From Chloroflexota bacterium (GTDB lineage: Bacteria; Chloroflexota; Dehalococcoidia; DSTF01; RBG-16-68-14): a stretch of 64,000 nucleotides of DNA. The notes below the pieces were generated by a model. The model searched no databases, was not told where the DNA came from, and saw nothing but the letters and a program-made list of their open reading frames with translations. Location of the stretch: the NCBI GenBank assembly GCA_022565155.1, contig JADFKB010000002.1, forward strand, positions 5,955 through 69,954, written 5' to 3'. The stretch's first letter is position 1; each line of letters starts with the position of its first letter. Below, one piece after another: positions 1,214-62,597 of this stretch. A program made the position numbers and the translations under genes.

Positions 1214-1313
1214 GGACGGGTTGCTCGTGGCGGCGGCCTGGCTGGCGCACCTCGTTGAGGGGAACGGAAAGCGCAGTTACTAACTTGGAATGATTTCAGG
1301 GAGGGGATCGGTT

Positions 1314-1862
1314 ATGACTGTAGATGGAATCAAGGAAGACGAGCGCAGGCTAGTTGGGCGCGCCATCGCTGGGGACGATGACGCCTTTGCGGCCCTGTAT
1401 GAGAGACATGTCGTTCGCGTCTACCGCCACCTGTACTACATGGTGGGTCAGGAAGCGGAAGACCTCACTGCGGAGACGTTTCTGCAGGCTTGGAAAGCGA
1501 TCGATAGGTACCAAATGCGAGGCGTCCCCATCATCTCGTGGCTGCTGCGCATAGCTCGCAACCAAGGGGTGAGCTATCTCCGTTCGCGCAGGGAGACGAA
1601 ACCTCTGCCCGAGGCATTGGCCGACAGCACGAGCAGGAGCGACCCTGAAGCGGCCACAGAGCGCCGGCTCGCGCTGGCGAATGTTAAGGATGCAATCTCG
1701 AATCTGGGTGAAGTGCAACGCCAGGTTCTCTCGCTCCGCTTGATGCAAGACCAGGATTACGGAACTGTGGCAGCACAGGTGGGCAGGAACGTGCCGGCCG
1801 TACGCGTCATCAAGCACCGGGGTCTGTGCAAAATTCGCGACCTTTTGCAGGAGGCCGTTTGA
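1314..1862 (+). CDS. ECF-type RNA polymerase sigma-70 factor
   Basis: Region 2 (FLQAWKAIDRY, SWLLRIARN) and region 4 HTH (QVLSLRLMQDQDYGTVAA) motifs. ATG at 1314 follows a GGGAGGGG RBS. Confidence 0.85.
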   Translation: MTVDGIKEDERRLVGRAIAGDDDAFAALYERHVVRVYRHLYYMVGQEAEDLTAETFLQAWKAIDRYQMRGVPIISWLLRIARNQGVSYLRSRRETKPLPEALADSTSRSDPEAATERRLALANVKDAISNLGEVQRQVLSLRLMQDQDYGTVAAQVGRNVPAVRVIKHRGLCKIRDLLQEAV

Positions 1863-2874: not shown

Positions 2875-3205
2875 GCCTGGATGCCTCCTTCTGGCAGCCG
2901 TAACGATTCCAAAAACTGGCGGCGGAACTACGAGCCATCTGCTCGCCAGCCTGTAGTACTGCCTCTGGGAGGCACAGGGTCCCGGCTATTGGAGGCAGAG
3001 GGCTGGCGTCTCCTACCAGTCCGCTGGGCGGCGTCAGGTGAGCACACGCAGCCTGGCCACGCTCGTCGTCGCCGAACCATACCGCCTACGAAGGCCGTGT
3101 GGGTCAACCGATTCATGCCGTCAATTCTACCTGTTTCCTTACCGTCGTCGATTGCGTCGGGCCACAATGGCAATGTGCTACAATCTCGGCCTTGAGGTCA
3201 CAACG

Positions 3206-3853
3206 TTGATATGGGGAATTCCGTTGAATAATCCCGAAAGCCCCGATGACGTACGCAGCTTCTACAACCGGGCGATGGAGGGGCCGCTACGCATGCTGTT
3301 TGGCCCGCTCGGCCTGCAGGGGGGCGGGTGGCCACTTCTGAACCTGGAGCGTTTGTTCGGCGATGCGGCCAGCCTGCTCGAAGTCGGCTGCGGTCAGGGC
3401 CTCCTGCTGGAGAAGGCGCTTCGACGGCTGAAGCCGCGGCGGGCCGTAGGCGTTGACCTTTCCGACGTGATGTTGGAGATCGCCTGGGAACGTCTGAAGC
3501 GACGAGGCAAGACCGAAACAATCCAGGTCGCACAAGCAGAGGCGACGACGCTGCCCTTCCAGGATGCTTGCTTCGACGGGCTGCTAAGCATGAGTATGAT
3601 CGAGCACCTGGACGAGAGGGCGCTGATGAAGTTCATGGGCGAGGCGAGGCGCGTGCTGAGGCCGGGTGGCAGGCTCTTCGTTTGGTCTTTTTCGCCGCGG
3701 AGCCCCATCGTGCTCGCGCGTCAAACAATGACCGGCCGTTCCTCGGACGAACTGCGCCTCCTGGCCATCCAGGCGGGATTTCGGGAGGCCCGGAGCCCCC
3801 GCGTGGGCCTGCCCTTCCCCTTCAGCTCGACCGTCCTCGCCTATCGAGAGTAG
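3206..3853 (+). CDS. class I SAM-dependent methyltransferase (start uncertain; 3167, 3206 and 3275 are in-frame candidates)
   Basis: Motif I LLEVGCGQG, then VGVDLSDVML and LRPGGRLFV. An extended -10 element TGTGCTACAAT at 3174-3184 argues for a start downstream of 3190. Confidence 0.7.
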   Translation: MIWGIPLNNPESPDDVRSFYNRAMEGPLRMLFGPLGLQGGGWPLLNLERLFGDAASLLEVGCGQGLLLEKALRRLKPRRAVGVDLSDVMLEIAWERLKRRGKTETIQVAQAEATTLPFQDACFDGLLSMSMIEHLDERALMKFMGEARRVLRPGGRLFVWSFSPRSPIVLARQTMTGRSSDELRLLAIQAGFREARSPRVGLPFPFSSTVLAYRE

Positions 3854-3895: not shown

Positions 3896-5797
3896 CTACG
3901 GAGGCAGACTATCCAACAGCCCTACGACATGCTGCAGGATCAGCGTGGAGTCGACCGCGTTTACTTGTCCATCACCGTTGACATCAGCGTTCTCGCCGCA
4001 CGGAAGGGTAGGAAGGAAGCCTGCTTCGTGCTGGAGAATGAGAGACGCGTCTATGGCACTGACATCGCCGTCACAGCTAACGTCACCGATGATGGCCTCT
4101 GGGGCACCCGCACCCAGCCAAGCCTCGTTCCAGAGGTATAGGCCTGTGCTTCCCAACCCTTGCGGAACGTTCTTCACGAAGCTGTGGTAGAGCGTGAAGG
4201 CTGTCCAGCTCATGATAGGCAGGAACGCCGGGCCCCTCTCATAGATCATTCGCTGCGCGTCCAACACTGCCGCTACTTGCGCCTCAGGGTTGGTAGTCGA
4301 CTTGGATGCCTGAATCGCTTCTTCGACTTCGGGATAGATGCCGCCGATGCCAACCGCGAAGTTGCGGTCGCCCTGCGGACCGGCGGCGGCATGGAAGTCG
4401 AGCGGTATCTCGGGCGTCTCGTAGATCTGGTTGAGCGAGAGCGACGAGTCGTAGTCCAAGTTCTGGTAGGCAGCCAGCCAGGTAGTGAAATCCTGTGCGA
4501 CCTCCTGGATGTTGAAGCCCGCTGCTTGCATCTGGAAGAGGAAGATCGGTAGATGCCTGTTGTGAAACTCGATGTCCGTCACAGGATAGATAACTCTGAT
4601 GTCGATCGAGTCAGATCCCGTGGCATCCATGATTAGTTGCCTCGAGAGCGCTGGGTCATAGGACTGGAGGACATCCAACTCTTCCGGCGGCAGCGCAAAA
4701 TTTCCAAGCGGCCAGTGGACAAGCCCGTTCGGCCTGCCGCCGCCGGGGCCGACGATGAGGTCAACGAACTGCTGCCGGTTCAGCGCATGCAGCGCCGCCT
4801 TCCGGATCCGCTCATCGTTCCACGGCGGTCGTTCCGGGTTCATGGTGAAGGAGATAAACGTGTTCACCGGGTCTTCCGTCACCAGGGCGTCAGGAATCTG
4901 TGCAAGCAGGCCGTCGACTTCCGCGCGGTCTTCCGCGCCGTAGGAATGGATCTGCTCATCGATGAAGGCGCTCCGACGTGGCTGGCGGTCGGAGAGGCGT
5001 ACAGCCTGGATCTGATCGAAGTACGGGAGCTGGTCGCCGTTCCCGGCCCGTCGGTAGTAGTTCGGGTTCCTGTTGACGATGATGCCGCCCCTTTCAGAAA
5101 AGGAGCCGGCTCGAATCGAGCCGAACGGACCGGCGCCGACGCCCTGAGCATTGATGTCGATCCCCTGCTCGAAGAACTCACGCGGGGGAATACAACCTCC
5201 AATCGGAGCGCCGATCCGGAACAGCGTATAGGCGTACGGCGCGACAGTCTTCAGCTGCACAGTTTGGGCGTCCGTCAGGCTGACCGAATCCAGCCATTGG
5301 TTGGTAAACGCGGCCATTACCGCACGGTCGTCTTGTGCGATTCGATTGAACCAACTCCGAACATCTGCGGCGTCCATGTCGCGCTCTTCGATACCAATCG
5401 TGTTCGGCGCGATCTTGACGTCCGGGCGAATCTTGAACAGGTACGTCTCTTCATCTGGCAGCTCAAAATATTCTGCCAGATCGAAGTAGAAGAAGTCAGG
5501 CTGGGTGCGCGAGCGGTCGACTAGACAGTTGTAGATCCGCGGAAAGATACTGGGGCCGAAAGCGACGCTGGTTACTGGATCAAGCGTTCCCCAGTCGCCG
5601 GTGATCGGGTAGATGTAGCGTCCGCCACGCAGGGCCTCACCCGCCAAGGCCGTCGTTCTGACACCTGGGAGCGCCAGGCCCGCACCGCTTGCCGCGCTGA
5701 TCGCAACGAGCCCGGCCGCGCCGAGGCCCGCTCCCTTCAGCAGCCGTCTGCGGGAGATTCTCGATCGTGTTAGCCGCTGCCAGTAGTCGCGCGCCAT
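3896..5797 (-). CDS. family 5 ABC-type solute-binding protein (peptide/nickel class) with Tat signal and C-terminal type I dockerin repeats
   Basis: N-terminal SRRRLLKGAGLGAAGL twin-arginine signal with no lipobox Cys. SBP_bac_5-like body. C-terminal GDVSCDGDVSAIDASLILQ and DVNGDGQVNAVDSTLILQHVVG calcium-loop dockerin repeats. Confidence 0.8.
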   Translation of the reverse strand: MARDYWQRLTRSRISRRRLLKGAGLGAAGLVAISAASGAGLALPGVRTTALAGEALRGGRYIYPITGDWGTLDPVTSVAFGPSIFPRIYNCLVDRSRTQPDFFYFDLAEYFELPDEETYLFKIRPDVKIAPNTIGIEERDMDAADVRSWFNRIAQDDRAVMAAFTNQWLDSVSLTDAQTVQLKTVAPYAYTLFRIGAPIGGCIPPREFFEQGIDINAQGVGAGPFGSIRAGSFSERGGIIVNRNPNYYRRAGNGDQLPYFDQIQAVRLSDRQPRRSAFIDEQIHSYGAEDRAEVDGLLAQIPDALVTEDPVNTFISFTMNPERPPWNDERIRKAALHALNRQQFVDLIVGPGGGRPNGLVHWPLGNFALPPEELDVLQSYDPALSRQLIMDATGSDSIDIRVIYPVTDIEFHNRHLPIFLFQMQAAGFNIQEVAQDFTTWLAAYQNLDYDSSLSLNQIYETPEIPLDFHAAAGPQGDRNFAVGIGGIYPEVEEAIQASKSTTNPEAQVAAVLDAQRMIYERGPAFLPIMSWTAFTLYHSFVKNVPQGLGSTGLYLWNEAWLGAGAPEAIIGDVSCDGDVSAIDASLILQHEAGFLPTLPCGENADVNGDGQVNAVDSTLILQHVVGLLDSLPP

Positions 5798-6000
5798 CGT
5801 GGCACCTTCCGCCTGAGTTCTCTGAGTCCTGTAGGCTGCGATAGTACCTCTCCTGTCGAAACTTGTAAAGCGCCTGTAACCCCCAGCGCTCTTCCGCGTT
5901 AGGGTAGGCAGGAGAGGGATGAGGAGAGGCGGGGCTCCCCTAGTCTCGCTCCCCCAGAGACGCCCGACGAGAGTCAGGGCGTCTTTGTTTTACAGCGATC

Positions 6001-6030
6001 TTGACAGGCCTCTAGCCTCCCTGGTATCCT
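6001..6030 (+). promoter_or_regulatory. sigma70-like promoter (TTGACA-18 bp-TATCCT) for the T-box leader
   Basis: -35 and -10 hexamers about 35 nt upstream of the leader structures. Confidence 0.4.
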
Positions 6031-6036
6031 CACGGA

Positions 6037-6367
6037 ACAATCGAATAGTAATCGGCTGCGATCGGGAAGAGTACGTCGCAAAGCGAGGCTTGCCCGCCAC
6101 CGGCGGGCTTAGAGAGCCGGGTAAGCTGAAAGCCGGCGCCAGCGCTGCGGCCGAATGGCCCCGTGAGCCGCGGACCGAACGTACTTCCACGGAAGGACAA
6201 GTAGGCTCCGCCGGGTTGGGCGCCGTTACCTGAGCCCAAGGTATCGTCCTTCTTCAGAAGGGCTGTACTGAAACGAGATGCCCTTTCATCGAGTAGAAAC
6301 GGGAAGGGCAAGTAGGGTGGCACCGCGAGCCTCTCGCCCCTATAGGGTGAGAGGTTTTTTTGTTTGT
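6037..6367 (+). promoter_or_regulatory. T-box riboswitch leader (Trp-type) with intrinsic terminator, upstream of trpS
   Basis: Conserved T-box sequence AGUAGGGUGGCACCGCG at 6311-6328. The UGGC bulge matches a tRNA with discriminator G (tRNA-Trp). Terminator hairpin cctctcgcccc/gggtgagagg followed by a U-tract at 6355-6367. A candidate UGG specifier lies in GAAUGGCC near 6155. Confidence 0.7.
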
Positions 6368-6407
6368 ATGGAACCAGGAACGAAGAACAAGGAAGCAGGG
6401 ACGAGGA

Positions 6408-7409
6408 ATGAGCGAGGACAAGAAGCGAATACTAACCGGCATCCGGCCCACGGGTGCGTTGCATCTCGGACACTACGCCGGAGCGTTGGAGAACTGGCTG
6501 CGGCTGCAGGACGAGTACGACTGCTTCTTCCTCATCGCCGACTACCAGGTCTCCGACAAGGCCGATGACATCGATTCCGTCCGCGAGGCCGTGCGCGAGA
6601 TCGCGCTCGACTGGCTCGCCGTCGGCCTCGATCCGGAGCGCAGCCACTTCGTAATCGAGAGCCTGATCCCGGAGCACGCGGAGCTGACGTTGTGGCTGAG
6701 CTGGTGGCTGCCACTGGGCATGCTGCAGCGCAACCCGACGCTGAAGGCAGAGATGGCAGAGCTAGGGTCAAATTCGGTACCCGTCGCCTTCTTTACCTAC
6801 CCGGTGATGCAGATGGCGAACATCCTGATGCCGAAGGCGCACCTGGTACCCGTCGGCGAAGACCAGCTGCCGCACATCGAGATGACGCGGGAGGTCGCGC
6901 GGCGGTTCAACCGCCTCTTCGGCGAGGTGTTTCCGGAGCCGGAAGGGCTGGTCGGCCGCGTGCCGCGGCTCGTCGGGCTCGACGGCAACGCGAAGATGGG
7001 CAAGTCGCTGGACAACGCGATCCAGTTGAAGGACGACGCCGAGACCGTGACGAAGAAGGTGAAAGGCATGTTCACCGATCCGACGCGCCTGCGCGCCACC
7101 GACCCGGGCCACCTCGAGGGCAATCCGGTCTTCATGTACCACGATGCCTTCAACCCGGACACAGATGAGGTGCAGGACCTGAAAGATCGCTACGTCGTTG
7201 GCAAAGTCGGCGACGTGGAAGTGAAACAGAAGCTAGCCAATGCCCTGAACGCATTTCTCGATCCGATCCGGGAGCGTCGCGCGCACTACGAAGCGCGGCC
7301 GGAGCTGGTGCGCGAGGCGCTCGCCGCCGGCACCAGCCACGCCAAGCGTATCGCCGAGCAGACGATGGCCGAGGTGCGGAGCGCGTTGCGGCTGAACTAT
7401 CTGGAGTAG
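6408..7409 (+). CDS. trpS: tryptophan--tRNA ligase
   Basis: Class I aaRS HIGH-type motif (TGALHLGHY) and KMGKS. The ATG at 6408 follows an RBS. The longer 6360 ORF starts inside the terminator. Confidence 0.9.
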   Translation: MSEDKKRILTGIRPTGALHLGHYAGALENWLRLQDEYDCFFLIADYQVSDKADDIDSVREAVREIALDWLAVGLDPERSHFVIESLIPEHAELTLWLSWWLPLGMLQRNPTLKAEMAELGSNSVPVAFFTYPVMQMANILMPKAHLVPVGEDQLPHIEMTREVARRFNRLFGEVFPEPEGLVGRVPRLVGLDGNAKMGKSLDNAIQLKDDAETVTKKVKGMFTDPTRLRATDPGHLEGNPVFMYHDAFNPDTDEVQDLKDRYVVGKVGDVEVKQKLANALNAFLDPIRERRAHYEARPELVREALAAGTSHAKRIAEQTMAEVRSALRLNYLE

Positions 7410-10096: not shown

Positions 10097-10357
10097 GGGT
10101 GCATGTTCAGGCAATAACCCACGCTGTAGGTCGGGGTCTTCAGACCCTGACAAGGGCCGAGCTTTCCCGCCGCAGGCGGGTCCGCCTCTGGCGGAAGCTC
10201 AACCTCTACAGAGACAGAGGAACGGCAGGGTGTTTTCGGACAATAACCCAAACGGAGGAACGGGGGAATAACCCATGCTGTAGGCCGGGGTCTTCAGACC
10301 CCGACAAGAAGCCAGCGAGGGGTGGAAACCCTTTGCCTAAAGGAGTGGTAGAGAACC
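10097..10357. repeat. REP-like intergenic repeat cluster: two copies of an about 42 bp hairpin unit plus a CCCGCC-N-GGCGGG hairpin
   Basis: aataacccacgctgtaggtcggggtcttcagaccctgacaag at 10112 and aataacccatgctgtaggccggggtcttcagaccccgacaag at 10262. The hairpin gagctttcccgccgcaggcgggtccgcctctggcggaagctc is at 10150-10200. Confidence 0.55.
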
Positions 10358-10921
10358 GTGATCCTGCTGATCGATAACTACGATAGCTTTACCTACAACC
10401 TCTACCAGTACCTGAGCGAGCTGGGGGCGGAGGTGCATACCATCCGCAACGATCAGGCGTCGGCTGCGGAGGTCGAAGCGCTCTCGCCGGAACGGGTCGT
10501 GATCTCGCCGGGGCCCCGCACGCCCAACGAGGCCGGCATCAGCGTCGAGGTCGTCGAGCGGATGGCCGGCCGCGTGCCGATTCTCGGCGTCTGCCTGGGG
10601 CACGAATGCATCGCCGTCGCGTTCGGCGGCGAGATAGCGGGCGCGGGCGAGATCATGCACGGTAAGAGCAGCGCGATTTCGCACGACGGCAAGGGCGTCC
10701 TGCGCGGCCTGCCCGATCCGTTCGACGCGATCCGGTACCACTCGCTGGCCGTGGTGCCGGAGAGCGTGCCGGAGAGCCTGGAGGTGACGGCGCATAGCGA
10801 CAGCGGCGTGATCATGGGCATCCGTCACCGCGAGTACGCCATCGAGGGGATCCAGTTCCATCCGGAGAGCATCATGACCTCCGTGGGGAAGCAGATACTC
10901 CAGAACTTCCTGGAGATGTGA
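10358..10921 (+). CDS. trpG: anthranilate synthase component II (glutamine amidotransferase)
   Basis: Class I glutamine amidotransferase with GVCLGHE catalytic Cys and a C-terminal HPES motif. Confidence 0.9.
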   Translation: MILLIDNYDSFTYNLYQYLSELGAEVHTIRNDQASAAEVEALSPERVVISPGPRTPNEAGISVEVVERMAGRVPILGVCLGHECIAVAFGGEIAGAGEIMHGKSSAISHDGKGVLRGLPDPFDAIRYHSLAVVPESVPESLEVTAHSDSGVIMGIRHREYAIEGIQFHPESIMTSVGKQILQNFLEM

Positions 10922-10987
10922 CGGTTTGCGTGGAGTGTGCAGTACACTCATGTTGATGTACCAGCATTCGTACAAGGACTTTAATCG

Positions 10988-12001
10988 ATGATCCGTGACG
11001 CTATCGCCAAGCTCGTCGACGGCCACGACCTCACCGAAGAGGAAGCTGCCGGCTGTATGGAGCAGATCATGGCGGCAGAGGCGACGCCGGCCCAGTTCGG
11101 CGCGTTCGTCGTCGCGCTGCGGCTGAAGGGCGAGACGGTGGACGAGATCACGGGCATGGCGCGCGTGATGCGTGAGAAGTCGCTCCACGTCGAGGTCGAT
11201 GGCCCGCTGCTGGACACCTGCGGCACCGGCGGCAGCGGCAAGAGCGTCTTCAACGTCAGCACCGCCGCGGCCTTCGTCGCCGCCGGCGCGGGCGTCCGCG
11301 TCGCCAAACATGGCAACCGGGCGATGACCAGCGCCTGCGGCAGCGCCGACGTGCTGGAGGCGCTGGGTGGCAAGATCGATCTGCCGCCGGCAGGCGTGCA
11401 GGCGAGCATCGAGCAGGCCGGCTTCGGCTTCATGTTCGCGCAGGCGTTCCACCCGGCGATGAAGTTCGCCGGCGGGCTGCGGCGCGAGATTGGCGTGCGC
11501 ACCGTCTTCAACATCCTCGGGCCGTTGACCAACCCGGCGGGCGCGGAGGCGCAGGTGCTTGGTGTCAGCGACGTGGCGCTGGCCGAGAAGATGGCGCAGG
11601 TGCTGCTACGCCTGCACACGAAGCACGCGCTGGTCGTCTCCAGCGAAGACGGACTCGACGAGGTGGGCGTGAGCGCGAACACGCGGGTCTACGAGGTGAA
11701 ACAAGGCGCATTCGAGCGCTATATGCTGAATCCTGCCGGCCTCGGCCTCGCGACGCACCCGCTGGAAGAGCTGCGCGGCGGCTCGGCAGAGGAGAACGCC
11801 GCGACGATGCGCCGCGTGCTGGGCGGCGAGGCCGGTGCGCTGCGCGATTTCACGCTGATCAACGCCGCCGCCGCGTTCGTCGCCGCCGACTTAGCAGATG
11901 ACATCACCGCCGGGCTGAAACTGGCGGCGGGGTCTATCGATAGCGGCGCGGCGCTGGAGAAGCTGGAGTCGTGGGTGAAGGTGTCGAATGAGGTGGGGTA
12001 G
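10988..12001 (+). CDS. trpD: anthranilate phosphoribosyltransferase
   Basis: GTGGSGKSVFNVST and KHGNRA motifs. 337 aa. Confidence 0.9.
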   Translation: MIRDAIAKLVDGHDLTEEEAAGCMEQIMAAEATPAQFGAFVVALRLKGETVDEITGMARVMREKSLHVEVDGPLLDTCGTGGSGKSVFNVSTAAAFVAAGAGVRVAKHGNRAMTSACGSADVLEALGGKIDLPPAGVQASIEQAGFGFMFAQAFHPAMKFAGGLRREIGVRTVFNILGPLTNPAGAEAQVLGVSDVALAEKMAQVLLRLHTKHALVVSSEDGLDEVGVSANTRVYEVKQGAFERYMLNPAGLGLATHPLEELRGGSAEENAATMRRVLGGEAGALRDFTLINAAAAFVAADLADDITAGLKLAAGSIDSGAALEKLESWVKVSNEVG

Positions 12002-15797: not shown

Positions 15798-16355
15798 GTG
15801 CAGACCGTGGACTTGCATTCCGATGACCAATCGGCGGTCGAACAGGCTGCGGCGCTGCTTGTCGATCTACTGCCGGAAGGCTGGTCAACCATGGAGTCGG
15901 CGCTGCGGGAGGTGGCGGAATCGTTGCCGGATGAGCGGATCAGCCGCATCGCCAGGGAAGGAGAAGAGGTGGTCGGCTGGGTGAGCGGGCAGGAGGCGTA
16001 TATCGGCCACACTTGGGAGCTGCACCCGCTGGTGGTGAAGCGCGAGCGCCACAGACAGGGCATCGGCCGCGCGCTCGTTGCCGACCTGGAGGAGCGCGTG
16101 CGCGAACGCGGCGGCCACACCGTCTACCTGGGTACCGACGACGAACGCGGCGAGACGAGCCTGGCGAACATCGAGCTTTACCCAGACCCGCTCGAGCACG
16201 CGGCGCGTATCACCAACCCCGGCGGCCACCCATACGAGTTCTACCAACACGTGGGGTACACTATCGTCGGTGTTCTGCCAGACGCCAACGGCTTCGGCCG
16301 GCCCGACATCTTCATGGCGAAGCGTATCGCGCCGCTCGCCGCGCCACAGACCTAG
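15798..16355 (+). CDS. GNAT acetyltransferase, AAC(6')-like
   Basis: RQGIGRALV and LGTDDE motifs, similar to aminoglycoside 6'-N-acetyltransferases. Confidence 0.65.
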   Translation: MQTVDLHSDDQSAVEQAAALLVDLLPEGWSTMESALREVAESLPDERISRIAREGEEVVGWVSGQEAYIGHTWELHPLVVKRERHRQGIGRALVADLEERVRERGGHTVYLGTDDERGETSLANIELYPDPLEHAARITNPGGHPYEFYQHVGYTIVGVLPDANGFGRPDIFMAKRIAPLAAPQT

Positions 16356-16364
16356 GAGGGCGTC

Positions 16365-17219
16365 ATCGAACCTGAATCTCGCTACTACAACTCCCAGCGG
16401 CTGAAGCTGCACTACGCCGTCTGGGGTGACGAATCGAAGCCGCCGCTGCTGCTGATCCACGGCGGCCGCGACCACGTCCGAAACTGGGACTACGTTGCGG
16501 AGGCGATGGTCGATGAGTACTGCGTCTACGCGCCGGACCTGCGCGGTCACGGCGACAGCGACTGGTCGATCGGCGGGCAGTACAGCATGACGGAGTTCGT
16601 GCTCGACGTCTCTGTGCTGGCCGATGTGCTCGACCGCGATCCGCTGACGATCATCGGCCACTCGCTGGGCGGCGGCGTCGCGCTCCAGTACGCCGGCGTT
16701 TGCCCGGAGCGGGTGGTGAAGGTCGTCTCGATTGAAGGGCTTGGCCCGCCGATGCAGCCACCACGCTCGGCGCACGAACGCATGAAGGAGTGGATCGGCC
16801 ACATGCGCCAGTTCGAGCAGCGCAAGCCGCGCCGCTACCCGTCGATCGACGCCGCCGTCACGCGGATGGAAGAAGAGAACCCGCACCTCTCGGAGGAGAT
16901 GGCGCGCCACCTCACCGTTCACGGCCTGCGCCAGAACGACGATGGCACCTACACCTGGAAGTTCGACAACTACGTGCGCATCCATTCGCCGTACCAGTTC
17001 AACATCGAGGACGCGCGCGACATTTGGAACCAGATCCGCTGTCCGGTGCTACTGGTGCGCGGAGATGAAAGCTGGGCGGGCGACCCGGAGAAAGACGGCC
17101 GCGCCAGCGCGTTTCACGACTACTGCTTGGTAACGATTAAGGATGCTGGCCACTGGGTGCACCACGACCGGCTAGAGGAGTTCCTAAAGGTTTCGCGGCG
17201 GTTCCTGCTGGGAGAGTAA
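16365..17219 (+). CDS. alpha/beta hydrolase fold protein (no canonical start codon in frame after the upstream stop)
   Basis: HGGRDH and GHSLGG nucleophile elbow. The homologous sequence begins right after the TAG at 16353, with an AGGAGG at 16354-16359 and then ATC at 16365. Confidence 0.65.
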   Translation: MEPESRYYNSQRLKLHYAVWGDESKPPLLLIHGGRDHVRNWDYVAEAMVDEYCVYAPDLRGHGDSDWSIGGQYSMTEFVLDVSVLADVLDRDPLTIIGHSLGGGVALQYAGVCPERVVKVVSIEGLGPPMQPPRSAHERMKEWIGHMRQFEQRKPRRYPSIDAAVTRMEEENPHLSEEMARHLTVHGLRQNDDGTYTWKFDNYVRIHSPYQFNIEDARDIWNQIRCPVLLVRGDESWAGDPEKDGRASAFHDYCLVTIKDAGHWVHHDRLEEFLKVSRRFLLGE

Positions 17220-21420: not shown

Positions 21421-21822
21421 ATGGGCATGCGCTGTCGAGGTATCCGCGGGGCGACCACCGTTGACGTGAACACCCCCGAGGCGATCCTTGAGGCCACCGC
21501 CGAGCTGCTGGCGGAGATGATGCGGGCCAACGATCTGTTGATCGACGATGTGGCCAGCGCCTACTTCACCACCACTCGCGACCTGAACGCCGAATTCCCT
21601 GCCGTGGCTGCGAACAAGCTGGGCTGGACGGATGTCGCCTTGCTCTGCGGCCACGAGATGGAGGTTCCCGGCAGCCTGCCACTGTGCCTGCGCATCCTTC
21701 TCCACGTCAATACGGAGAAGGCGGCGCGGGACCTAGCGCACGTATATCTGCGGGGGGCGACAGTTCTCCGCCCAGATCGAACGTATGCGAATGACGAAGT
21801 AACGGAGGCGAAATCGCCATGA
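21421..21822 (+). CDS. aroH: chorismate mutase, AroH class
   Basis: RGIRGATTV N-terminus and TRDLNAEFPA motif typical of AroH-type chorismate mutases. Confidence 0.75.
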   Translation: MGMRCRGIRGATTVDVNTPEAILEATAELLAEMMRANDLLIDDVASAYFTTTRDLNAEFPAVAANKLGWTDVALLCGHEMEVPGSLPLCLRILLHVNTEKAARDLAHVYLRGATVLRPDRTYANDEVTEAKSP

Positions 21823-22862
21823 TGGTCATTATGACTAACGAGCACAGCGAGGAGGAGATGAACGCCATCCTCCGGAGGCTGGACGAGATCGGACTGAAAG
21901 GGCACCCCATTGTCGGTGTCGAGCGCACAGTCATCGCCGTTGTCGGCAGCATCTACCCTGAGCTGAGCGACGAGCTGGAGACGATGGATGGTGTGGAGAG
22001 CACCGTCCGGATCAGCACGCCGTACAAGTTGGCCAGCCGGCAGACCAAGCCAGAGTCGACGGTGGTGAAGGTAGGCGGCGTCGAGATCGGCTCCGGCAAG
22101 ACCGTGATGATCGCTGGGCCGTGCGCTGTCGAGAGCGAGGAGCAGATACTGGCGACAGCAAGAGCGGTGAAAGAAGCCGGCGGCCACCTTATGCGCGGAG
22201 GCGCGTTCAAGCCGCGCACGTCGCCCTACAGCTTCCGCGGGCTGGGGGAGGAGGGCCTGAAGCTGCTCGCCCTCGCTCGAGAGGAGACGGGCCTCGCGTT
22301 CGCCACGGAGGTGATGTCCGTCCGAGAGGTGGAGGTGGTGGCAAAGTACGCGGACATCCTGCAGATCGGCGCGCGCAACGCCCAGAACTTCATGCTGCTG
22401 GAGGAGGTTGGGCGCACAGGCAAGCCGGTGCTGCTCAAGCGCGGCTTGGCGTCGACGATCGACGACTGGCTGTTGGCGTCTGAGTACATCCTGAACACCG
22501 GCAACCCGAACGTGATACTCTGCGAACGCGGTATCCGCACCTTTGAGACCGCGACGCGGAATACGCTGGACATCAACGCCATCCCGCTGGTCAAGCAGTT
22601 GAGCCACCTGCCGCTGATCGCGGATCCGAGCCACGGAACGGGCAAGTGGTCGCTGGTGAAGCCGGTCGGCCTGGCGTCGATAGTGGCCGGCGCGGACGGC
22701 CTGATCGTCGAAGTGCATCCGAGCCCGGATCATGCGCTCTCTGACGGCGCGCAGTCGCTCAACTTCCAGCGCTTCCGCGAGCTGATGGAGCAGATGCGGG
22801 TGATTGGCGAGACGGTCGGCAGGCCGCTCTTGCCCGCCGCGACGGAGCCGGTCCGGACGTAA
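21819..22862 (+). CDS. 3-deoxy-7-phosphoheptulonate (DAHP) synthase, type I-beta with N-terminal regulatory domain
   Basis: KPRTSPYSF, ADILQIGARN and IADPSHG motifs. ATGA overlap with aroH. Confidence 0.9.
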   Translation: MMVIMTNEHSEEEMNAILRRLDEIGLKGHPIVGVERTVIAVVGSIYPELSDELETMDGVESTVRISTPYKLASRQTKPESTVVKVGGVEIGSGKTVMIAGPCAVESEEQILATARAVKEAGGHLMRGGAFKPRTSPYSFRGLGEEGLKLLALAREETGLAFATEVMSVREVEVVAKYADILQIGARNAQNFMLLEEVGRTGKPVLLKRGLASTIDDWLLASEYILNTGNPNVILCERGIRTFETATRNTLDINAIPLVKQLSHLPLIADPSHGTGKWSLVKPVGLASIVAGADGLIVEVHPSPDHALSDGAQSLNFQRFRELMEQMRVIGETVGRPLLPAATEPVRT

Positions 22863-22978
22863 CACTCGCTACGACGCTTATCAACGCGGGGCAGCCATCC
22901 GGCTGCCCCGCGGGCGATCATGGCTGGCGGTGCGTGCGGGTGGTGCGTCTGCTATCCTGCCCTGGAGGTGAGCGCCAG

Positions 22979-25799: not shown

Positions 25800-25868
25800 A
25801 TCTCACATGCGTAATTGGGGAGGGGGATGGCCCCCTCTCTCGTCTTCTAACGGTCTGGGACGGGTAAT

Positions 25869-26882
25869 ATGTCTGGTATGAACAAACGCGAACGCGTCAT
25901 GGCCGCCCTCCGTGGCCAGGAGGTAGATGCTCCCCCCGTCGGCTTCTGGGGCCACGATTTCATGCGCGAGTGGACGGCTGAGGGGCTGGCGGCGGCGATG
26001 CTGGAGCAGGTACGCACGTACGATTACGACTACCTGAAGGTGAACCCGCGCGCCACGTACTATGCGGAGGCGTGGGGCTGTCGCTACCGCAGCGCCAACG
26101 ACCCGGCGAAGCGGCCGGAGGTCGCGCATTGGGTGCTGCGCGAGCCGGCCGATCTGGAATCGGTGCGGCCGGTCGATAGTTCGGCCGGGCCGTTCGGCGA
26201 GCAGCTGGAGGCGCTTCGTCTCATCGCCGAAGGGCTGAACGGCGAGGTGCCGTTCGTCCAGACCGTATTCTCGCCGCTCTCCGTCCTCGGCCGCATGGCG
26301 AACGATCGCGAGCTCATTCAACGTTGGATGACGGAGGCGCCAGATGCGCTGAACGCCGCGCTCGCGGCCGTCGCCGAAACGCTGGCTGCCTACGCGCGTG
26401 CCTGCCTGGAGATCGGCGCGGACGGCATCTTCTTTCCGACGACGGAGTGGGGCGCCGCCGATGCCTGTTCGGCGGAGCAGTACGAGGCGTTCGGCCGCCA
26501 GTACGATTTGCAGGTGTTGGCAGCGGCGGAAGGTGCGTCCTTTAACATCCTCCACGTCTGCCGGCCGCACAACATCATGGACGCGATCTTGGATTATCCA
26601 GCAGCCGTGGTCAACTGGGCGGTGCACGATGATGGTAACGCCACGCTCGCTGATGCGATGAAGCGTACCGGCATGGCTATGATGGGCGGCGTCAACGAGA
26701 AAGAGACGCTGATGAACGGCTCGGTTGCGGACGTGCGCGCTGAAGTTCAGGAGGCGCTGCGCCAGACCGGAGGCCGGCGATTCCTGGTCGCGCCGGGCTG
26801 CTCGATCTCGCCCCAGACGCCTCCGGAACACATCCATGCGGCCGTGGCTGCGGCCCGCGAACAGGGACCCCGCGAACAATGA
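25869..26882 (+). CDS. uroporphyrinogen decarboxylase (URO-D/MtaA) family protein
   Basis: 337 aa with URO-D family architecture (DYLKVNPRA, FFPTTEWG). Confidence 0.7.
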   Translation: MSGMNKRERVMAALRGQEVDAPPVGFWGHDFMREWTAEGLAAAMLEQVRTYDYDYLKVNPRATYYAEAWGCRYRSANDPAKRPEVAHWVLREPADLESVRPVDSSAGPFGEQLEALRLIAEGLNGEVPFVQTVFSPLSVLGRMANDRELIQRWMTEAPDALNAALAAVAETLAAYARACLEIGADGIFFPTTEWGAADACSAEQYEAFGRQYDLQVLAAAEGASFNILHVCRPHNIMDAILDYPAAVVNWAVHDDGNATLADAMKRTGMAMMGGVNEKETLMNGSVADVRAEVQEALRQTGGRRFLVAPGCSISPQTPPEHIHAAVAAAREQGPREQ

Positions 26883-57748: not shown

Positions 57749-58819
57749 GTGCCCTATGGTATGCTCGGCTGTGAACAGGCGCTTCGCCTGACTATTGACA
57801 TGGGGCTAAGAGCGCGCACATCCACTATCATCGCCGTTGCCAGACCCGTGATCGTCTTCGGCGCTATCGTCGCTACCTTCTCTTTCCTGGGCTGGACGCT
57901 GGTCTCAAACTGGAACGATCTCTCGTCGGAGGAGATCGATGTCCAGCCTGCGCTACTGGTCTTATCGATCTTGCCGGGCATCGCTGCTGTCGTTGTCATG
58001 GGTCTCACCTGGGCGGGCCTTATCCGCTACCTCGAGGGCCGCGATACGGCATCGGCGCAATCGTTGTTGAAGATATTCCTCTACTCCTGGGTAGGCCGTT
58101 ACGTACCGGGAAAGGTTGCGTACGTGGCGGGCAGGTTCCTTCTGGGCCGGTCGATCCGCATCTCCTCGGCCTCTTTGGCTGGCAGCATGGCGTACGAGGG
58201 TGTGCTGCAGTTAATGGCGGGGGCTGCCTTAGCGTCGGTGACGCTGGTACCAACGCTCGCTATCGAGTCGGAGAGCTTCTTGCCGTACCTAGCGCTGCCG
58301 GCGCTGGCCGTAGGCGGCGCTATCGTACTGCACCCGCGGGTGCTGGGCTGGGTGCTGCGCTTCGGCTTGCGGGTCGCCGGCCGGGAGTCGGTCGAGTTCA
58401 AGCGGCTGCTGCCGCCCAGGCAGATAGCGAAAGTCACCGGCATGTACGTTGGCGCGTTCTTGTTGAACGGCGTGGGGTTCTACTTGCTTATCATATCGCT
58501 CACGGACTACTCCCCGCGCTACCTGCCGCTGGCGGTGGGGCTCTTCGGGTTGGCTGCTGTCGTGGGGCTGGTCAGCGTCTTTGCACCGGCCGGCATCGGC
58601 GTCCGTGAGGGGATCCTCGTAGTCGTTCTGCAGACGACGATGCCGGTTGAGCTGGCGATCCTCGTCTCGCTTGTCGCGCGAGTGTGGGCAACCGTGATCG
58701 ATCTGCTCTTGATCGCAGGCTGCTTTTTCTACGACCAACTATCCGGTGAGCGGCTGCTGATCAACGCGCTGCGCGGGAGAGGAAGCGAGAACGATGCGCC
58801 CAGCGCGCTCGATCCCTAG
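57749..58819 (+). CDS. membrane protein of the lysylphosphatidylglycerol-synthase TM-region / flippase-like (UPF0104) family
   Basis: Eight or more predicted TM helices. Conserved GYVPGK and APAGIGVREG segments. Confidence 0.65.
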   Translation: MPYGMLGCEQALRLTIDMGLRARTSTIIAVARPVIVFGAIVATFSFLGWTLVSNWNDLSSEEIDVQPALLVLSILPGIAAVVVMGLTWAGLIRYLEGRDTASAQSLLKIFLYSWVGRYVPGKVAYVAGRFLLGRSIRISSASLAGSMAYEGVLQLMAGAALASVTLVPTLAIESESFLPYLALPALAVGGAIVLHPRVLGWVLRFGLRVAGRESVEFKRLLPPRQIAKVTGMYVGAFLLNGVGFYLLIISLTDYSPRYLPLAVGLFGLAAVVGLVSVFAPAGIGVREGILVVVLQTTMPVELAILVSLVARVWATVIDLLLIAGCFFYDQLSGERLLINALRGRGSENDAPSALDP

Positions 58820-59803: not shown

Positions 59804-60595
59804 TCACGGCAGCGTGCCCAGGATGCAGTAGCGGTTCACGCCGTCCTGCAGGTCGTCGGGACATCCGCCCGGCTCTTCCGTCACCACCTCCCGCAGCGCG
59901 ATCACGACGTAGCTTGTACCGTCTGACCGGTACCAGTAGCCGTTGCGGATCGGCGTTCCGAACGGATCGACCGGCGTCGCTGCGAGGTCGCAGCCGACAT
60001 CGAGCGTTGTGTAGGCGCACAACGTCTGCACCTGGCCGCGGGTGTTCGGGTACTCGCCGTTCTGGTGAGCGTAGACGTCCAGTGCTGTCCGCACTGTCTC
60101 GAGGTCCTCGCGGCGAATCTGGTCTCGTTCGGCGGGCGTTCGCGAGTCGGTAGGCGGCACGGGATCCGCCGCCGCCACTATCCGCTCTTCGACGTCGCGG
60201 ACGATCTCCTCTTTCGACGCGCGCCGAATGGTATTAGAACCGTAATTGGCGACGTAAAGCTTCCGATCTTCGTAGATGTCCAAGATCTCGAAGTCGTCTT
60301 CATTGCCTTGGAGCTCGGCCCAGACGACATTGCCGTCGAGGCTGGGACTGTTCAGCCAGAACACGCTGCCGTAGCACCACCAGTGCGGACAGTTCTCGAC
60401 AAGGATCAGCGCGTTATCGAGATCTATCTCGTCCGCACGATCTGGCAGCCGCCGGTCGGTGAAGTTGAAGCCTTCGAGCTGAGATGCGTTCGACGGGGTA
60501 AAAGTGGTGACGCCGCTGCCGGACCACGTCTCGCGCTGGCCGAAGAGCCAGCCGTAGACGCTGAACGCGATCAGGATGGCGGCCAGCCCGTACAC
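59804..60595 (-). CDS. membrane-anchored protein with C-terminal pseudopilin (GspG/type IV pilin)-like domain
   Basis: GTG start directly into a TM helix (YGLAAILIAFSVYGWLFG). The C-terminal LETVRTALDVYAHQNGEYPNT...PVDPFGTPIRNGYWYRSDGTSYVVIA matches the pseudopilin core pattern. Confidence 0.5.
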   Translation of the reverse strand: MYGLAAILIAFSVYGWLFGQRETWSGSGVTTFTPSNASQLEGFNFTDRRLPDRADEIDLDNALILVENCPHWWCYGSVFWLNSPSLDGNVVWAELQGNEDDFEILDIYEDRKLYVANYGSNTIRRASKEEIVRDVEERIVAAADPVPPTDSRTPAERDQIRREDLETVRTALDVYAHQNGEYPNTRGQVQTLCAYTTLDVGCDLAATPVDPFGTPIRNGYWYRSDGTSYVVIALREVVTEEPGGCPDDLQDGVNRYCILGTLP

Positions 60596-62597
60596 CGCGA
60601 AGCTGACGGTGGCGGACGGCGTCGGCGTCGAATCGTTGCGGAAGCGGCGGGCCAGCCAGTCGCCCAGTGGTGGCGGCGTCTCGGATCGACTCGAACCCGC
60701 GGGCGGTGAGGAGGATCAGGAACGGCAGCGACTCGTACCAGAAGCGCGGCCCGTGCATGATCGCCGACGAACGGTAGAAGATAGGCGCGCTGACGATGGC
60801 GAGGAATGAGGCGCCCAGGAAGTAGTCCCACTTGTTCTTCGTTCCTAACAAAAATGGGAGCGCAGCCACGATCAAGCCGATCGCCACGGGCCAGCCGTTA
60901 GCCACGAGAAGCAGCAGCGAGAGCAACTCCTGCTGGTTCTGAATGCCGGCTGTGACGGAGTGGGTGCCGCTGAACCCAACGAAGTCCTCATTAAACGTGC
61001 CTTGTATCTCGTAGGCCGTGGTGTTGAAGTCGCCGGTTGTCATCTGGTTATAGAGGAAGTATGAGCCCAGCAGCAGCAGCGCGCCGGCGGAGAAGGCGAG
61101 GTCTTCGCGTAGGAGGGCCAGACGGTTGGGTCCTGCGCGAAGCAGTTCGTATGCCATGAAGACGCCGAGCACGGGCATGAACGCCACCGCCGTAAACGGC
61201 CGGATGTTGAACAGCAGCCCGATGAAGACGCCGGCGACGAACATTGCGATGATTCGTCGCTTCGTCTGCAAGGTCAACAGAAAGAGGGCTGCGAGGATAG
61301 TGAAGACTGCCGTATTATGTGACATAAAGTTACTGGCGGTCATCAGGAAGAACGGCGAGGAGAGAAGCAGCACGGCTGCAAGCAGGCCCGTAGAGGCGTT
61401 GTAGAGGCGCTTGCCGATGGCGTAAATGAGGGCGACACAGGCCGCCCCCAGGACGGGCGGCACGAGCCAGATTGCGCCAAAGAGCTGTCCGACAGCGAGG
61501 AACAGCGGATGGCCAAAGGGGTAGTGGCTGAACCAACGGCCGTCCACAACTTGGAACATATGCGGATTGAAGATGGAGAAGCTCTCGCGCAAGGGGGGCG
61601 CATCTGCAGTGAGCCGGAACGAGGCGAAGATCTTCGCCTGGAACGTATAGCCGACCGAGTCCGGCACATGCGGAACCGCCTCGCCGACGACGTAGAGCAG
61701 ATACCAGAGCAGTACGAGCGATCCGGCCGCGAGGCCGAAAGCGATGGCCGGCGCGGCCTCCGTGACCAGTCCGGCGGCAGCCCGCAGCCGTCGCTCGAGC
61801 CAGGCGAGCCGGAGCACGAAGGCCAGGCTGATCGCGCCGGCGATCGCGAACAGCGCGTAGGGATACGGCCGCAGCATCATGGCGGTGATCGATTGGATCG
61901 TCTGGCCACGGTCGAGGTTGAGGCGGGCCTGCTCGACGCGTTCTCCGGGCACCGACGATCCGTCTTCAATGCGCGCAAGGACGGCGCCGCCGAGCCCTCG
62001 AAACGGCCGGATGGTGAGGAGGACAGCGTTGTTCAGGTCTTGTAATCGGACGTAGATCGTCGCCTCGGTCGCGTTCCGTATCTTGGCTTCCAGGACGATG
62101 TTCCCCCAGTCCTGCGGGCCTGTCGAGATCGAACCCGTGCCCTCCGTACCAAAGGTGCCGTCATCTACCGACCACGCGCCCCCAGCATCTTGCCAGAGTG
62201 CTGACGGCGAGCCGTTGAAGTCGTCCTCGAAGAGTACGGTGTCCGTGCCGAACTCGGTCACCCGGACGGAGTCGAACCCGAACGGCTTCGGCAACCCAGG
62301 CAGCCGATAGTCGTTTGAGAGCCGCAAGCCGATGCCGCCTTGCGTGGGGCCCTGGAACGTTCCTTCGGCGACCAGCTCGCCGTCAACGAACGCGCGGTAC
62401 TGGGAGCCGTTCGCTTCGATTCGGATGTCTGTCGTCGCGCCGCCACGGCTCCAGAAGTAGAGCGCGATCAGCGCGAGATTGACGACGATGATCAGCCAGA
62501 CAGTAGTGGAGCGCCACGAGCGCGCGGGCAGCAGGCTGGCGATGTTCGAGAATAACGATAGGCGGCTGGCAGCGGTCGCAGGCTCCGGAATTTGCAT
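60414..62597 (-). CDS. GT-C fold glycosyltransferase (PMT/ArnT-like, GT39/GT83-type) with N-terminal extracytoplasmic beta-rich domain; 3' end uncertain
   Basis: One N-terminal TM, about 200 aa extracellular domain, then about 13 TM helices with a PMT_2-like layout. The last about 90 codons are Arg-rich, overlap the next gene by 180 bp and are probably a non-coding read-through. Confidence 0.65.
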   Translation of the reverse strand: MQIPEPATAASRLSLFSNIASLLPARSWRSTTVWLIIVVNLALIALYFWSRGGATTDIRIEANGSQYRAFVDGELVAEGTFQGPTQGGIGLRLSNDYRLPGLPKPFGFDSVRVTEFGTDTVLFEDDFNGSPSALWQDAGGAWSVDDGTFGTEGTGSISTGPQDWGNIVLEAKIRNATEATIYVRLQDLNNAVLLTIRPFRGLGGAVLARIEDGSSVPGERVEQARLNLDRGQTIQSITAMMLRPYPYALFAIAGAISLAFVLRLAWLERRLRAAAGLVTEAAPAIAFGLAAGSLVLLWYLLYVVGEAVPHVPDSVGYTFQAKIFASFRLTADAPPLRESFSIFNPHMFQVVDGRWFSHYPFGHPLFLAVGQLFGAIWLVPPVLGAACVALIYAIGKRLYNASTGLLAAVLLLSSPFFLMTASNFMSHNTAVFTILAALFLLTLQTKRRIIAMFVAGVFIGLLFNIRPFTAVAFMPVLGVFMAYELLRAGPNRLALLREDLAFSAGALLLLGSYFLYNQMTTGDFNTTAYEIQGTFNEDFVGFSGTHSVTAGIQNQQELLSLLLLVANGWPVAIGLIVAALPFLLGTKNKWDYFLGASFLAIVSAPIFYRSSAIMHGPRFWYESLPFLILLTARGFESIRDAATTGRLAGPPLPQRFDADAVRHRQLRGVRAGRHPDRVQRLRLALRPARDVVRQRRHHFYPVERISARRLQLHRPAAARSCGRDRSR

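Follow-up and report, generated by a model that had tools for sequence, protein, structure and literature searches.

The stretch of DNA considered here, referred to as the window, comprises 64,000 nucleotides from a Chloroflexota bacterium (GenBank assembly GCA_022565155.1, contig JADFKB010000002.1, positions 5,955 to 69,954 of the forward strand), and the gene of interest within it encodes a solute-binding protein (SBP) that ends in a dockerin module. The coding sequence is complete and lies on the minus strand (3896..5797), the plus-strand reading of the same interval being broken by many stop codons. Its product of 633 amino acids, followed by a stop codon, is identical to NCBI entry MCH8064296.1 (IIC90_00520), which derives from an 80-kb contig of a Chloroflexi/Chloroflexota metagenome-assembled genome (MAG). 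The neighbours of the gene are a convergent methyltransferase gene (3038-3853, plus strand) and, on the other side, the divergent trpS and trp operon, and it appears to be monocistronic. Putative expression signals, which are consensus matches only, lie upstream of the start codon (5805..5869, minus strand) and consist of a promoter-like TTTACA-17-TACTAT at 5869-5841 and a Shine-Dalgarno-like GGAAGG at 5810-5805. Comparison of the protein with its homologs strongly supports the interpretation that the dockerin stands in place of a lipid anchor.

The leader, residues 1-52 (5642..5797, minus strand), is predicted from its sequence and from low predicted local distance difference test (pLDDT) values at residues 1-51 to be a twin-arginine translocation (Tat) signal peptide, with a conserved n-region, a G/A/L-rich h-region and a basic c-region (R47). 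An earlier reading of the DNA made from the letters alone (hereafter the sequence-only reading) had proposed a twin-arginine leader, and the motif SRRRLLK was indeed located at residues 15-21 (5735..5755, minus strand), with R16 and R17 at least 90% conserved across 80 homologs (alignment A7). Its agreement with the pattern [ST]-R-R-x-[FL]-L-K, together with a weakly hydrophobic h-region and a basic c-region, is what would be expected of a Tat substrate; the generic Tat hidden Markov model (HMM) TIGR01409 scored 11.3 bits, below its cut-off of 16.7. The n-region itself (residues 1-13; 5758-5797, minus strand) is unusually conserved throughout the family (consensus xSYWQRFxRQRISRRR, with W6 and R13 kept in 90% or more of 80 sequences) and might be recognised by a dedicated factor. 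The whole protein has four cysteines, at positions 91, 202, 575 and 600, and since the first of them appears only at residue 91 the leader has no lipobox, as the sequence-only reading had also maintained; the bacterial lipoprotein pattern [LVI]-[ASTVI]-[GAS]-C is absent from the leader end. A signal-peptidase I site, ALA52|G53, is predicted there from motifs.

The mature solute-binding domain spans residues 53-562 (4112..5641, minus strand) and is of the cluster C or family 5 type (DppA/OppA/NikA/MoaA). The family 5 assignment made by the sequence-only reading was upheld by a Pfam match to SBP_bac_5 (PF00496) over residues 106-454 (4436-5482, minus strand) at 111.8 bits against a cut-off of 32.4, and the bilobate fold of the predicted structure agrees with this placement. 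In the full-length AlphaFold model, built with 80 homologs, the mean pLDDT was 89, and residues 1-51 were disordered (pLDDT < 50) and thus fit a signal peptide ending at Ala52. Foldseek matched the core to DppA, MoaA, NikA, OppA and others (E 1e-26 to 4e-30, template modelling (TM) score normalized to the target about 0.8). The nearest solved sequence, that of the mannopinic-acid binder MoaA (6tfq; E 5e-16), is only about 21% identical and therefore too remote for a ligand to be assigned.

A linker of about eight residues, GAGAPEAI, separates the end of the SBP fold from the C-terminal dockerin module, which was delimited by Pfam, profile and AlphaFold evidence to residues 570-633 (3899..4090, minus strand). 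The Pfam family Dockerin_1 (PF00404) matches residues 571-622 at 35.0 bits, above the gathering cut-off of 22.9. The module consists of two repeats of about 22 residues, each made of a 12-residue EF-hand-like loop of the form D-x-[ND]-x-D-G-x5-D and a following helix. Both predicted calcium-binding loops that the sequence-only reading had quoted were recovered exactly, each followed two residues on by LILQ: loop 1, DVSCDGDVSAID (residues 572-583; 4049..4084, minus strand), precedes AS-LILQ, contains Cys575 and has Ser replacing Asn/Asp at positions 3 and 9, and loop 2, DVNGDGQVNAVD (residues 605-616; 3950..3985, minus strand), precedes ST-LILQ. The corresponding helices cover residues 581-591 after DVSCDGDVSAID and 614-624 after DVNGDGQVNAVD. 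A profile of 11 orthologous dockerin modules matches solved type I dockerins with an E-value of 2.5e-10. Structure prediction of the C terminus, which the sequence-only reading had proposed as a check, gave an AlphaFold model of the dockerin alone with a pLDDT of 93.6 that superposes on 4fl4_A, a cohesin-bound type I dockerin of C. thermocellum, with a TM score of 0.86 and a root-mean-square deviation of 1.2 A (Foldseek); every one of the top 30 Foldseek matches to this model is a dockerin. As profile match, repeat structure and predicted fold agree, the module belongs to the type I dockerin family claimed for it at the outset, and its loops are predicted to bind calcium. Type I dockerins contact cohesin through repeat positions 10-11 and 17-18, and at these positions the two repeats, as read from the sequence, carry near-identical residues (A-[IV] at 10-11 and L-Q at 17-18).

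The module also has a feature of its own in Cys575 and Cys600, the latter part of an LPC motif five residues before calcium loop 2. The 150 best database representatives contain 353 dockerin modules, of which 95 have both cysteines, 243 have neither and 15 have a single one. The two residues form a covarying pair, and a disulfide clasp between them is a reasonable inference.

The relation between dockerin and lipobox was examined in 121 homologs, namely the 120 best homologs and one more distant dockerin form, with motif states assigned by regular expression. The great majority (106) have a lipobox and lack a dockerin; their Tat leader typically ends in LAVAAAC, and a Gly/Asp/Glu-rich tether comes after it. 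Ten have a dockerin only and no lipobox, and one (P0022) has both. The four scored as having neither comprise an N-terminally truncated sequence, two with odd or deleted leaders, and P0071, whose lipobox the expression missed and whose addition brings the lipobox-only count to 107. The association between the two states is very strong (Fisher p = 2e-11, relatedness ignored), and because the Fisher test takes no account of relatedness the states were also mapped on a tree. In a neighbour-joining tree of the SBP core the dockerin forms occupy 7 separate positions, and the number of Fitch changes is likewise 7. The query and P0002 group together as sisters of a lipobox clade; the core of the query shares 80% identity with the lipobox form P0003 and only 70% with the next dockerin clade.

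The exchange extends to the leader. Nine of the ten dockerin-only forms have an alanine site at the leader end, in which position -1 is A and position -3 is A or L (ALA, AVA, AAA, AQA, ARA, LAA); the exception is P0032, with VQG. The site follows the basic c-region, is separated by 6-8 residues from the first strand of the fold, and takes the position where the relatives carry LAxAAC and a Gly/Asp-rich tether. These motifs suggest that signal peptidase I has taken over from signal peptidase II in processing the leader, a switch that is to be expected if the protein is set free from the membrane and retained in some other way. Independent assemblies contain the same SBP-dockerin architecture, at 56-82% identity, and the fusion is therefore not an assembly artefact. 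The central claim of the sequence-only reading, a dockerin instead of a lipid anchor, thus gained comparative backing from the near-exclusive occurrence of lipobox and dockerin, the approximately seven state changes and the leader switch.

Dockerins are more alike than the proteins that carry them, as would be expected if the dockerin were a shared, transferable module. In P0170 the core is 42-45% identical to the others and the dockerin 59-70%. In P0022 (634 amino acids, from a contig of 2,156 bp) the dockerin shares 95% identity with that of P0002 and the cores share 61%, which suggests that the module was transferred very recently, with the exchange still incomplete, or that the assembly is chimeric. 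Related loci present the same module on several carriers: locus L001 has two tandem SBP_bac_5-dockerin genes and a CHRD-dockerin gene, and locus L005 has five dockerin genes within 10 kb, including those for PD40 propellers and a Flg_new_2 protein. In locus L003 a Peripla_BP_6-dockerin gene adjoins an SBP_bac_5-dockerin gene, so that a second, unrelated SBP family is involved. The Peripla_BP_6 (LivJ-like) protein in question is encoded at L003 8026-9906 (plus strand), directly upstream of the SBP_bac_5-dockerin gene; its dockerin is internal (residues 447-497) and is followed by a cupredoxin-like domain of about 120 residues with a weak match to SoxE.

A homolog search with the 65-residue dockerin alone returned four short proteins, and an exhaustive profile search was used instead. 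It yielded 22,498 cluster representatives at E <= 1e-3, a number that covers all dockerin types and reaches beyond this lineage. The cysteine-type dockerin is present in 92 of the best 150 proteins, where its partner domains include RCC1 propellers, P-domains, PPC, FG-GAP, beta-helix, cupredoxins, CAP and cohesin, and further partners among the same 92 are protease-associated domains and copper-binding proteins.

Cohesins, the counterpart of dockerins, were found in related genomes. Six small proteins combine a signal peptide, one cohesin and one cysteine-type dockerin and are candidate adaptors; a cohesin profile derived from them matches solved cohesins (E 1e-6). Loci with cohesin genes were located with the narrower cohesin alignments A5 and A8. 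A cohesin profile applied to one genome per species revealed large scaffoldins in four Chloroflexi/Dehalococcoidia MAG loci (L006-L009), each with an N-terminal signal peptide and 4-8 cohesin matches. Their Pfam Cohesin scores range from 60 to 172 bits, and no other domain was found in them, including any carbohydrate-binding module (CBM) or enzyme domain. The genes lie on the plus strand at L006 5839-11334, L007 3973-8466, L008 5827-8811 and L009 5728-8586. The L006 scaffoldin (1,831 amino acids) has a long Pro/Thr-rich stalk and terminates in LPDTG followed by a hydrophobic stretch and a basic tail, predicted to be a sortase-type or membrane anchor, and the L007 scaffoldin ends in LPGAG, a transmembrane helix and a basic tail. 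Pro/Thr linkers, invariant cysteine pairs in the cohesins and a degenerate dockerin-like segment near the C terminus were also observed in the scaffoldins of these four loci, for which we found no description in the searchable literature.

Some cohesin genes have dockerin genes for neighbours. In L008 and L009 the scaffoldin gene is immediately followed by one for a conserved protein with a dockerin that shares 64% identity with the SBP dockerins, and an RCC1-dockerin gene is nearby. Locus L006 belongs to MAG SZUA-185 from metagenome Ga0063294, the same source as the 185-kb contig L003 that carries the SBP-dockerin protein P0010.

A profile of 21 cohesin modules matched 525 further proteins at E <= 1e-5. 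The best 120 of these, all small, include two named Dehalococcoidia cohesin proteins, and 75 of the 120 consist of a signal peptide, one cohesin, about 10 linker residues, a C-terminal membrane helix and a basic tail. This single-cohesin family (P0280-P0301 and others, alignment A8; loci L019-L098) has members of 190-240 amino acids, is abundant in sediment metagenomes and conserves its membrane helix (GFxWALWGPVIGG...WWxRR). In their geometry, such proteins would make ideal membrane-proximal sockets, but any link between them and the SBP described here is conjectural.

Two further observations concern the neighbourhoods of cohesin genes. Repeatedly, the cohesin gene is followed by genes for an extracytoplasmic function (ECF) sigma factor and a DUF5667 protein (L007 9395-11681, L014 13243-15343, L017 2214-3416), the latter domain presumably resembling an anti-sigma domain, and the cohesin-linked sigma factors are 74-79% identical between loci. 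The ECF sigma factor of the window (1290-1862) was considered as a member of this group and rejected, as it is 37-38% identical to these factors against 79% within the group. In three loci a glycosyltransferase of the PMT_2/TMEM260_N type adjoins the cohesin (L011/L012 186-1724 and L014 5943-7595, minus strand), and such neighbours may hint at O-glycosylation of the Pro/Thr-rich linkers. The PMT_2-family gene of the window (60414-62597, minus strand) has no cohesin beside it; the ORF next to it at the window end was considered as a cohesin protein, by analogy with L011/L012, and set aside, its sequence resembling a nucleotide-sugar dehydrogenase.

Pfam scans of about 55 open reading frames (ORFs) across the window revealed housekeeping genes and no permease or ATPase of the ATP-binding cassette (ABC) type and no cohesin, and the SBP-dockerin gene carries the sole dockerin of the window. 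The SBP is thus a genuine orphan there, and the absence of an adjacent permease or ATPase reported by the sequence-only reading holds over the whole 64 kb. The lipobox homolog P0110 (51% identical), on a 3.6-Mb contig, has DppB/DppC-type permease genes (BPD_transp_1, OppC_N) directly downstream, and the family is therefore a real ABC-importer family. Another lipobox homolog, P0006 (73% identical), is an orphan like the query, so that the orphan state is common and not tied to the dockerin.

Among other features of the window, Rfam searches at gathering thresholds and tRNA scans gave no match. A T-box leader (6049-6344, plus strand) precedes trpS (6360-7409) and the trp operon and occupies the greater part of the 560-bp interval that precedes the SBP gene; it matches the full-length model with 87.3 bits (E 1.5e-19) against an Rfam gathering threshold of 93, hence its omission at that threshold. 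A terminator-like hairpin (6327-6357) and a promoter-like site (6001-6030) accompany it. Five long ORFs of 356-434 amino acids have no Pfam match at E <= 0.05, four on the minus strand (10337-11452, 15885-16985, 21561-22865 and 25803-26879) and one on the plus strand (57749-58819); some of them have a third-position GC content below that of their neighbours and may not be real genes.

The reading that we prefer, and regard as reasonably probable, combines Tat export, cleavage by signal peptidase I, calcium-dependent docking on a surface-anchored cohesin that replaces the lipid tether, and delivery of the ligand to an Opp/Dpp-type permease encoded elsewhere. The protein would be the substrate-binding component of an Opp/Dpp/Nik-type ABC importer, exported in folded form by the Tat pathway. 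Signal peptidase I would cut after Ala52 and free it from the membrane, and the C-terminal calcium-dependent dockerin, not an N-terminal lipid, would hold it at the cell surface by plugging into a cohesin module of a surface-anchored protein. Candidate receptors are the LPXTG- or transmembrane-anchored scaffoldins with 4-8 cohesins, the cohesin-dockerin adaptors, and the single cohesins with a C-terminal helix. The dockerin would then do the job of the lipid tether, namely to stop the SBP from diffusing off, and may in addition bring several binding proteins together on a single scaffold. The identity of the cohesin partner and the handover of ligand to a permease encoded elsewhere are parts of this scheme that we infer.

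Several points weigh against this scheme. Tethering through a cohesin-bearing partner, as the sequence-only reading had suggested, is favoured by the cohesin scaffoldins of four related MAGs, but the window itself has none: two lineage-specific cohesin HMMs found no match in its six-frame translation, and for this organism the cohesin search covered the 64-kb window. No cohesin gene lies within 10 kb of the five SBP-dockerin loci examined, and no permease or ATPase gene was found in the window or within 10 kb of five related dockerin loci, so that the transport role of the protein rests on family membership. L003 and L006 are close in GC content (0.640 versus 0.637) and tetranucleotide usage (correlation 0.96), a similarity that is not decisive for an origin from one genome. 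In a further 0.69 Mb of loci, mostly around membrane-anchored single cohesins, a single dockerin gene of this type was present and SBP-dockerin genes were absent, so that these cohesins have no genomic link to SBP-dockerins and are retained only as candidate receptors. The SBP-core tree is a simple neighbour-joining tree with no support values, and signal-peptide cleavage was judged from motifs. Finally, the long stalk of the L006 scaffoldin could hold its cargo far from the membrane, awkwardly for ligand handover; it is in this stalk, and in the lack of proof that this genome encodes a cohesin, that the scheme is weakest.

The stalk also bears on a different view, which we consider rather unlikely, namely that the SBP is a capture or sensing module without a transport function, displayed on a multi-cohesin scaffold alongside propeller, protease-like and other dockerin proteins, away from the membrane, in the manner of a CBM in a cellulosome or a nutrient antenna, and never seated on an ABC permease. 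Long Pro/Thr stalks on the scaffoldins would suit such a role, as would the orphan state of the SBP-dockerin gene in the window and in five related loci, the non-transport nature of the neighbouring dockerin proteins, and the extra cupredoxin-like domain with its weak SoxE match on the Peripla_BP_6-dockerin protein of L003. The orphan state is nevertheless not specific to dockerin forms, being shared by P0006, the closest lipobox relative examined, and a member of the family directly adjoins DppB/DppC permease genes; moreover, the 80% identity of the SBP core to a lipobox form argues for an unchanged function. Anchoring might instead reside in the leader, if the Tat signal remained uncleaved as an N-terminal membrane anchor and the dockerin served, for instance, to cluster SBPs or to link the membrane to an outer protein layer. 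The h-region is long enough to invite this idea (about 22 residues of G/A/L/S), but it is Gly/Ala-rich and only weakly hydrophobic, and an alanine site about 6-8 residues before the first strand is conserved in all but one of the dockerin-only forms. P0022 demonstrates that lipobox and dockerin can coexist, yet its dockerin, nearly that of P0002, on a contig of some 2 kb, fits a recent transfer or a chimeric assembly. A dockerin unrelated to anchoring would, moreover, hardly account for the almost complete mutual exclusion of lipobox and dockerin. We judge an uncleaved leader improbable.

Slightly more improbable still, in our estimation, is a dockerin-like module that acts without any cohesin, as a calcium-dependent stabilising or adhesive tail on cell-wall or S-layer glycans or on another class of protein. 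Dockerin-like sequences occur in many organisms that have no cohesins, the matches of this type are very numerous, as the count of cluster representatives given above illustrates, cohesins are absent from the window and from the SBP-dockerin neighbourhoods examined, and the role of the dockerin modules of anaerobic methanotrophic (ANME) archaea is likewise unresolved (PMC9012536). Against this stand cohesins homologous to solved ones in the same class, several to a polypeptide, the small adaptor proteins in which a cohesin is fused to the same cysteine-type dockerin, and the cohesin genes that directly adjoin genes with the same dockerin. Both repeats, moreover, appear to keep near-identical type I cohesin-contact residues.

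Untethered SBPs of bacteria that have no outer membrane diffuse away. Three ways of holding them are given in textbooks, namely a lipid anchor, a membrane helix and fusion of the SBP to the permease, and tethering by cohesin and dockerin, which is non-covalent, would add a fourth. That lipobox and dockerin were exchanged repeatedly and reciprocally constitutes unusually direct comparative evidence for functional interchangeability. The finding further points to a widespread cohesin-dockerin system, unrelated to cellulose degradation, in an abundant uncultured lineage that is probably Dehalococcoidia. A broader proposal, possible in our view although we hesitate to call it probable, is that Dehalococcoidia-type Chloroflexi run a large non-cellulolytic cohesin-dockerin display, with disulfide-clasped dockerins on many protein families, LPXTG- or transmembrane-anchored scaffoldins, adaptors, membrane-bound single cohesins and possibly control by ECF sigma and anti-sigma factors, into which SBPs of at least two families would have been recruited repeatedly by anchor swap. 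On that proposal the outcome would be a modular nutrient-capture scaffold on which the set of displayed SBPs could be swapped without a change of permease. The searchable literature yielded no description of a cohesin-dockerin system in this lineage, no paper joining cohesin, dockerin and Dehalococcoidia, and nothing relevant for SAR202. Cohesin-dockerin pairs from it, including those with the cysteine-clasped dockerin, could become new orthogonal parts for protein-assembly engineering.

Among known systems, the lipoprotein SBPs of monoderm bacteria, which have a Tat or Sec leader and a lipobox, such as OppA of Bacillus and Lactococcus, belong to the same SBP family and share the need for a receptor near the membrane, but the protein described here has neither the lipobox cysteine nor the Gly/Asp-rich tether, and its anchor would be C-terminal and non-covalent. 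With the type I system of clostridial cellulosomes (CipA/OlpB of C. thermocellum; PDB 4fl4, 1ohz) it shares the dockerin fold and its duplicated calcium-loop/helix repeat, and the lineage shares homologous cohesins and scaffoldins with tandem cohesins, Pro/Thr linkers and a surface anchor. The order of cohesin, ECF sigma and DUF5667 genes recalls the SigI/RsgI control of clostridial cellulosome genes. In contrast, the cargo here is a transporter binding protein and not a glycoside hydrolase, the Chloroflexi scaffoldins have no CBM or domain of a carbohydrate-active enzyme (CAZyme), the dockerin has an extra cysteine pair, and its helix reads [ST]-[IV]-D-A-[AS]-L-[IV]-L-Q rather than S-T-D-x-x-x-L-K-R-Y. 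Neighbouring dockerins are borne by PD40, CHRD, Flg_new_2 and RCC1 proteins, and with neither CAZyme cargo nor CBM the system is not a cellulosome. Non-cellulosomal cohesin-dockerin systems are known.

In Ca. Stygibacter (Cloacimonadota), MAGs revealed a scaffoldin with tandem cohesins and CBMs together with dockerin-tagged secreted proteins (PMC8542988); unlike the present case, the cargo there consists of a chitinase, an amylase and peptidases, with no SBP reported. The closest parallel is found in ANME archaea, in which common dockerin proteins are SBPs of the NikA/OppA and TroA types and whose genomes also encode proteins bearing as many as five cohesins (Chadwick et al. 2022, PLoS Biol, PMC9012536). 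Likened by description, the two cases have in common a family 5 SBP with a dockerin, multi-cohesin proteins, a non-cellulolytic setting and evidence from genomics only (PMC9012536). The query differs in being bacterial (Chloroflexi/Dehalococcoidia) and, by prediction, Tat-exported, in a dockerin that alternates with the lipobox among close homologs, and in a dockerin subtype with a covarying cysteine pair; the Chloroflexi scaffoldins have LPXTG-like or transmembrane anchors, and the ANME proteins S-layer domains. The sequence-only reading had called this kind of anchoring underexplored, a description to be qualified, since dockerin-bearing SBPs and multi-cohesin proteins had been reported in ANME archaea (PMC9012536). 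Because the principle had already been suggested for these archaea, our result extends it and provides evidence for it rather than founding it, and the SBP-dockerin protein is a bacterial case of a known idea, not a new principle.

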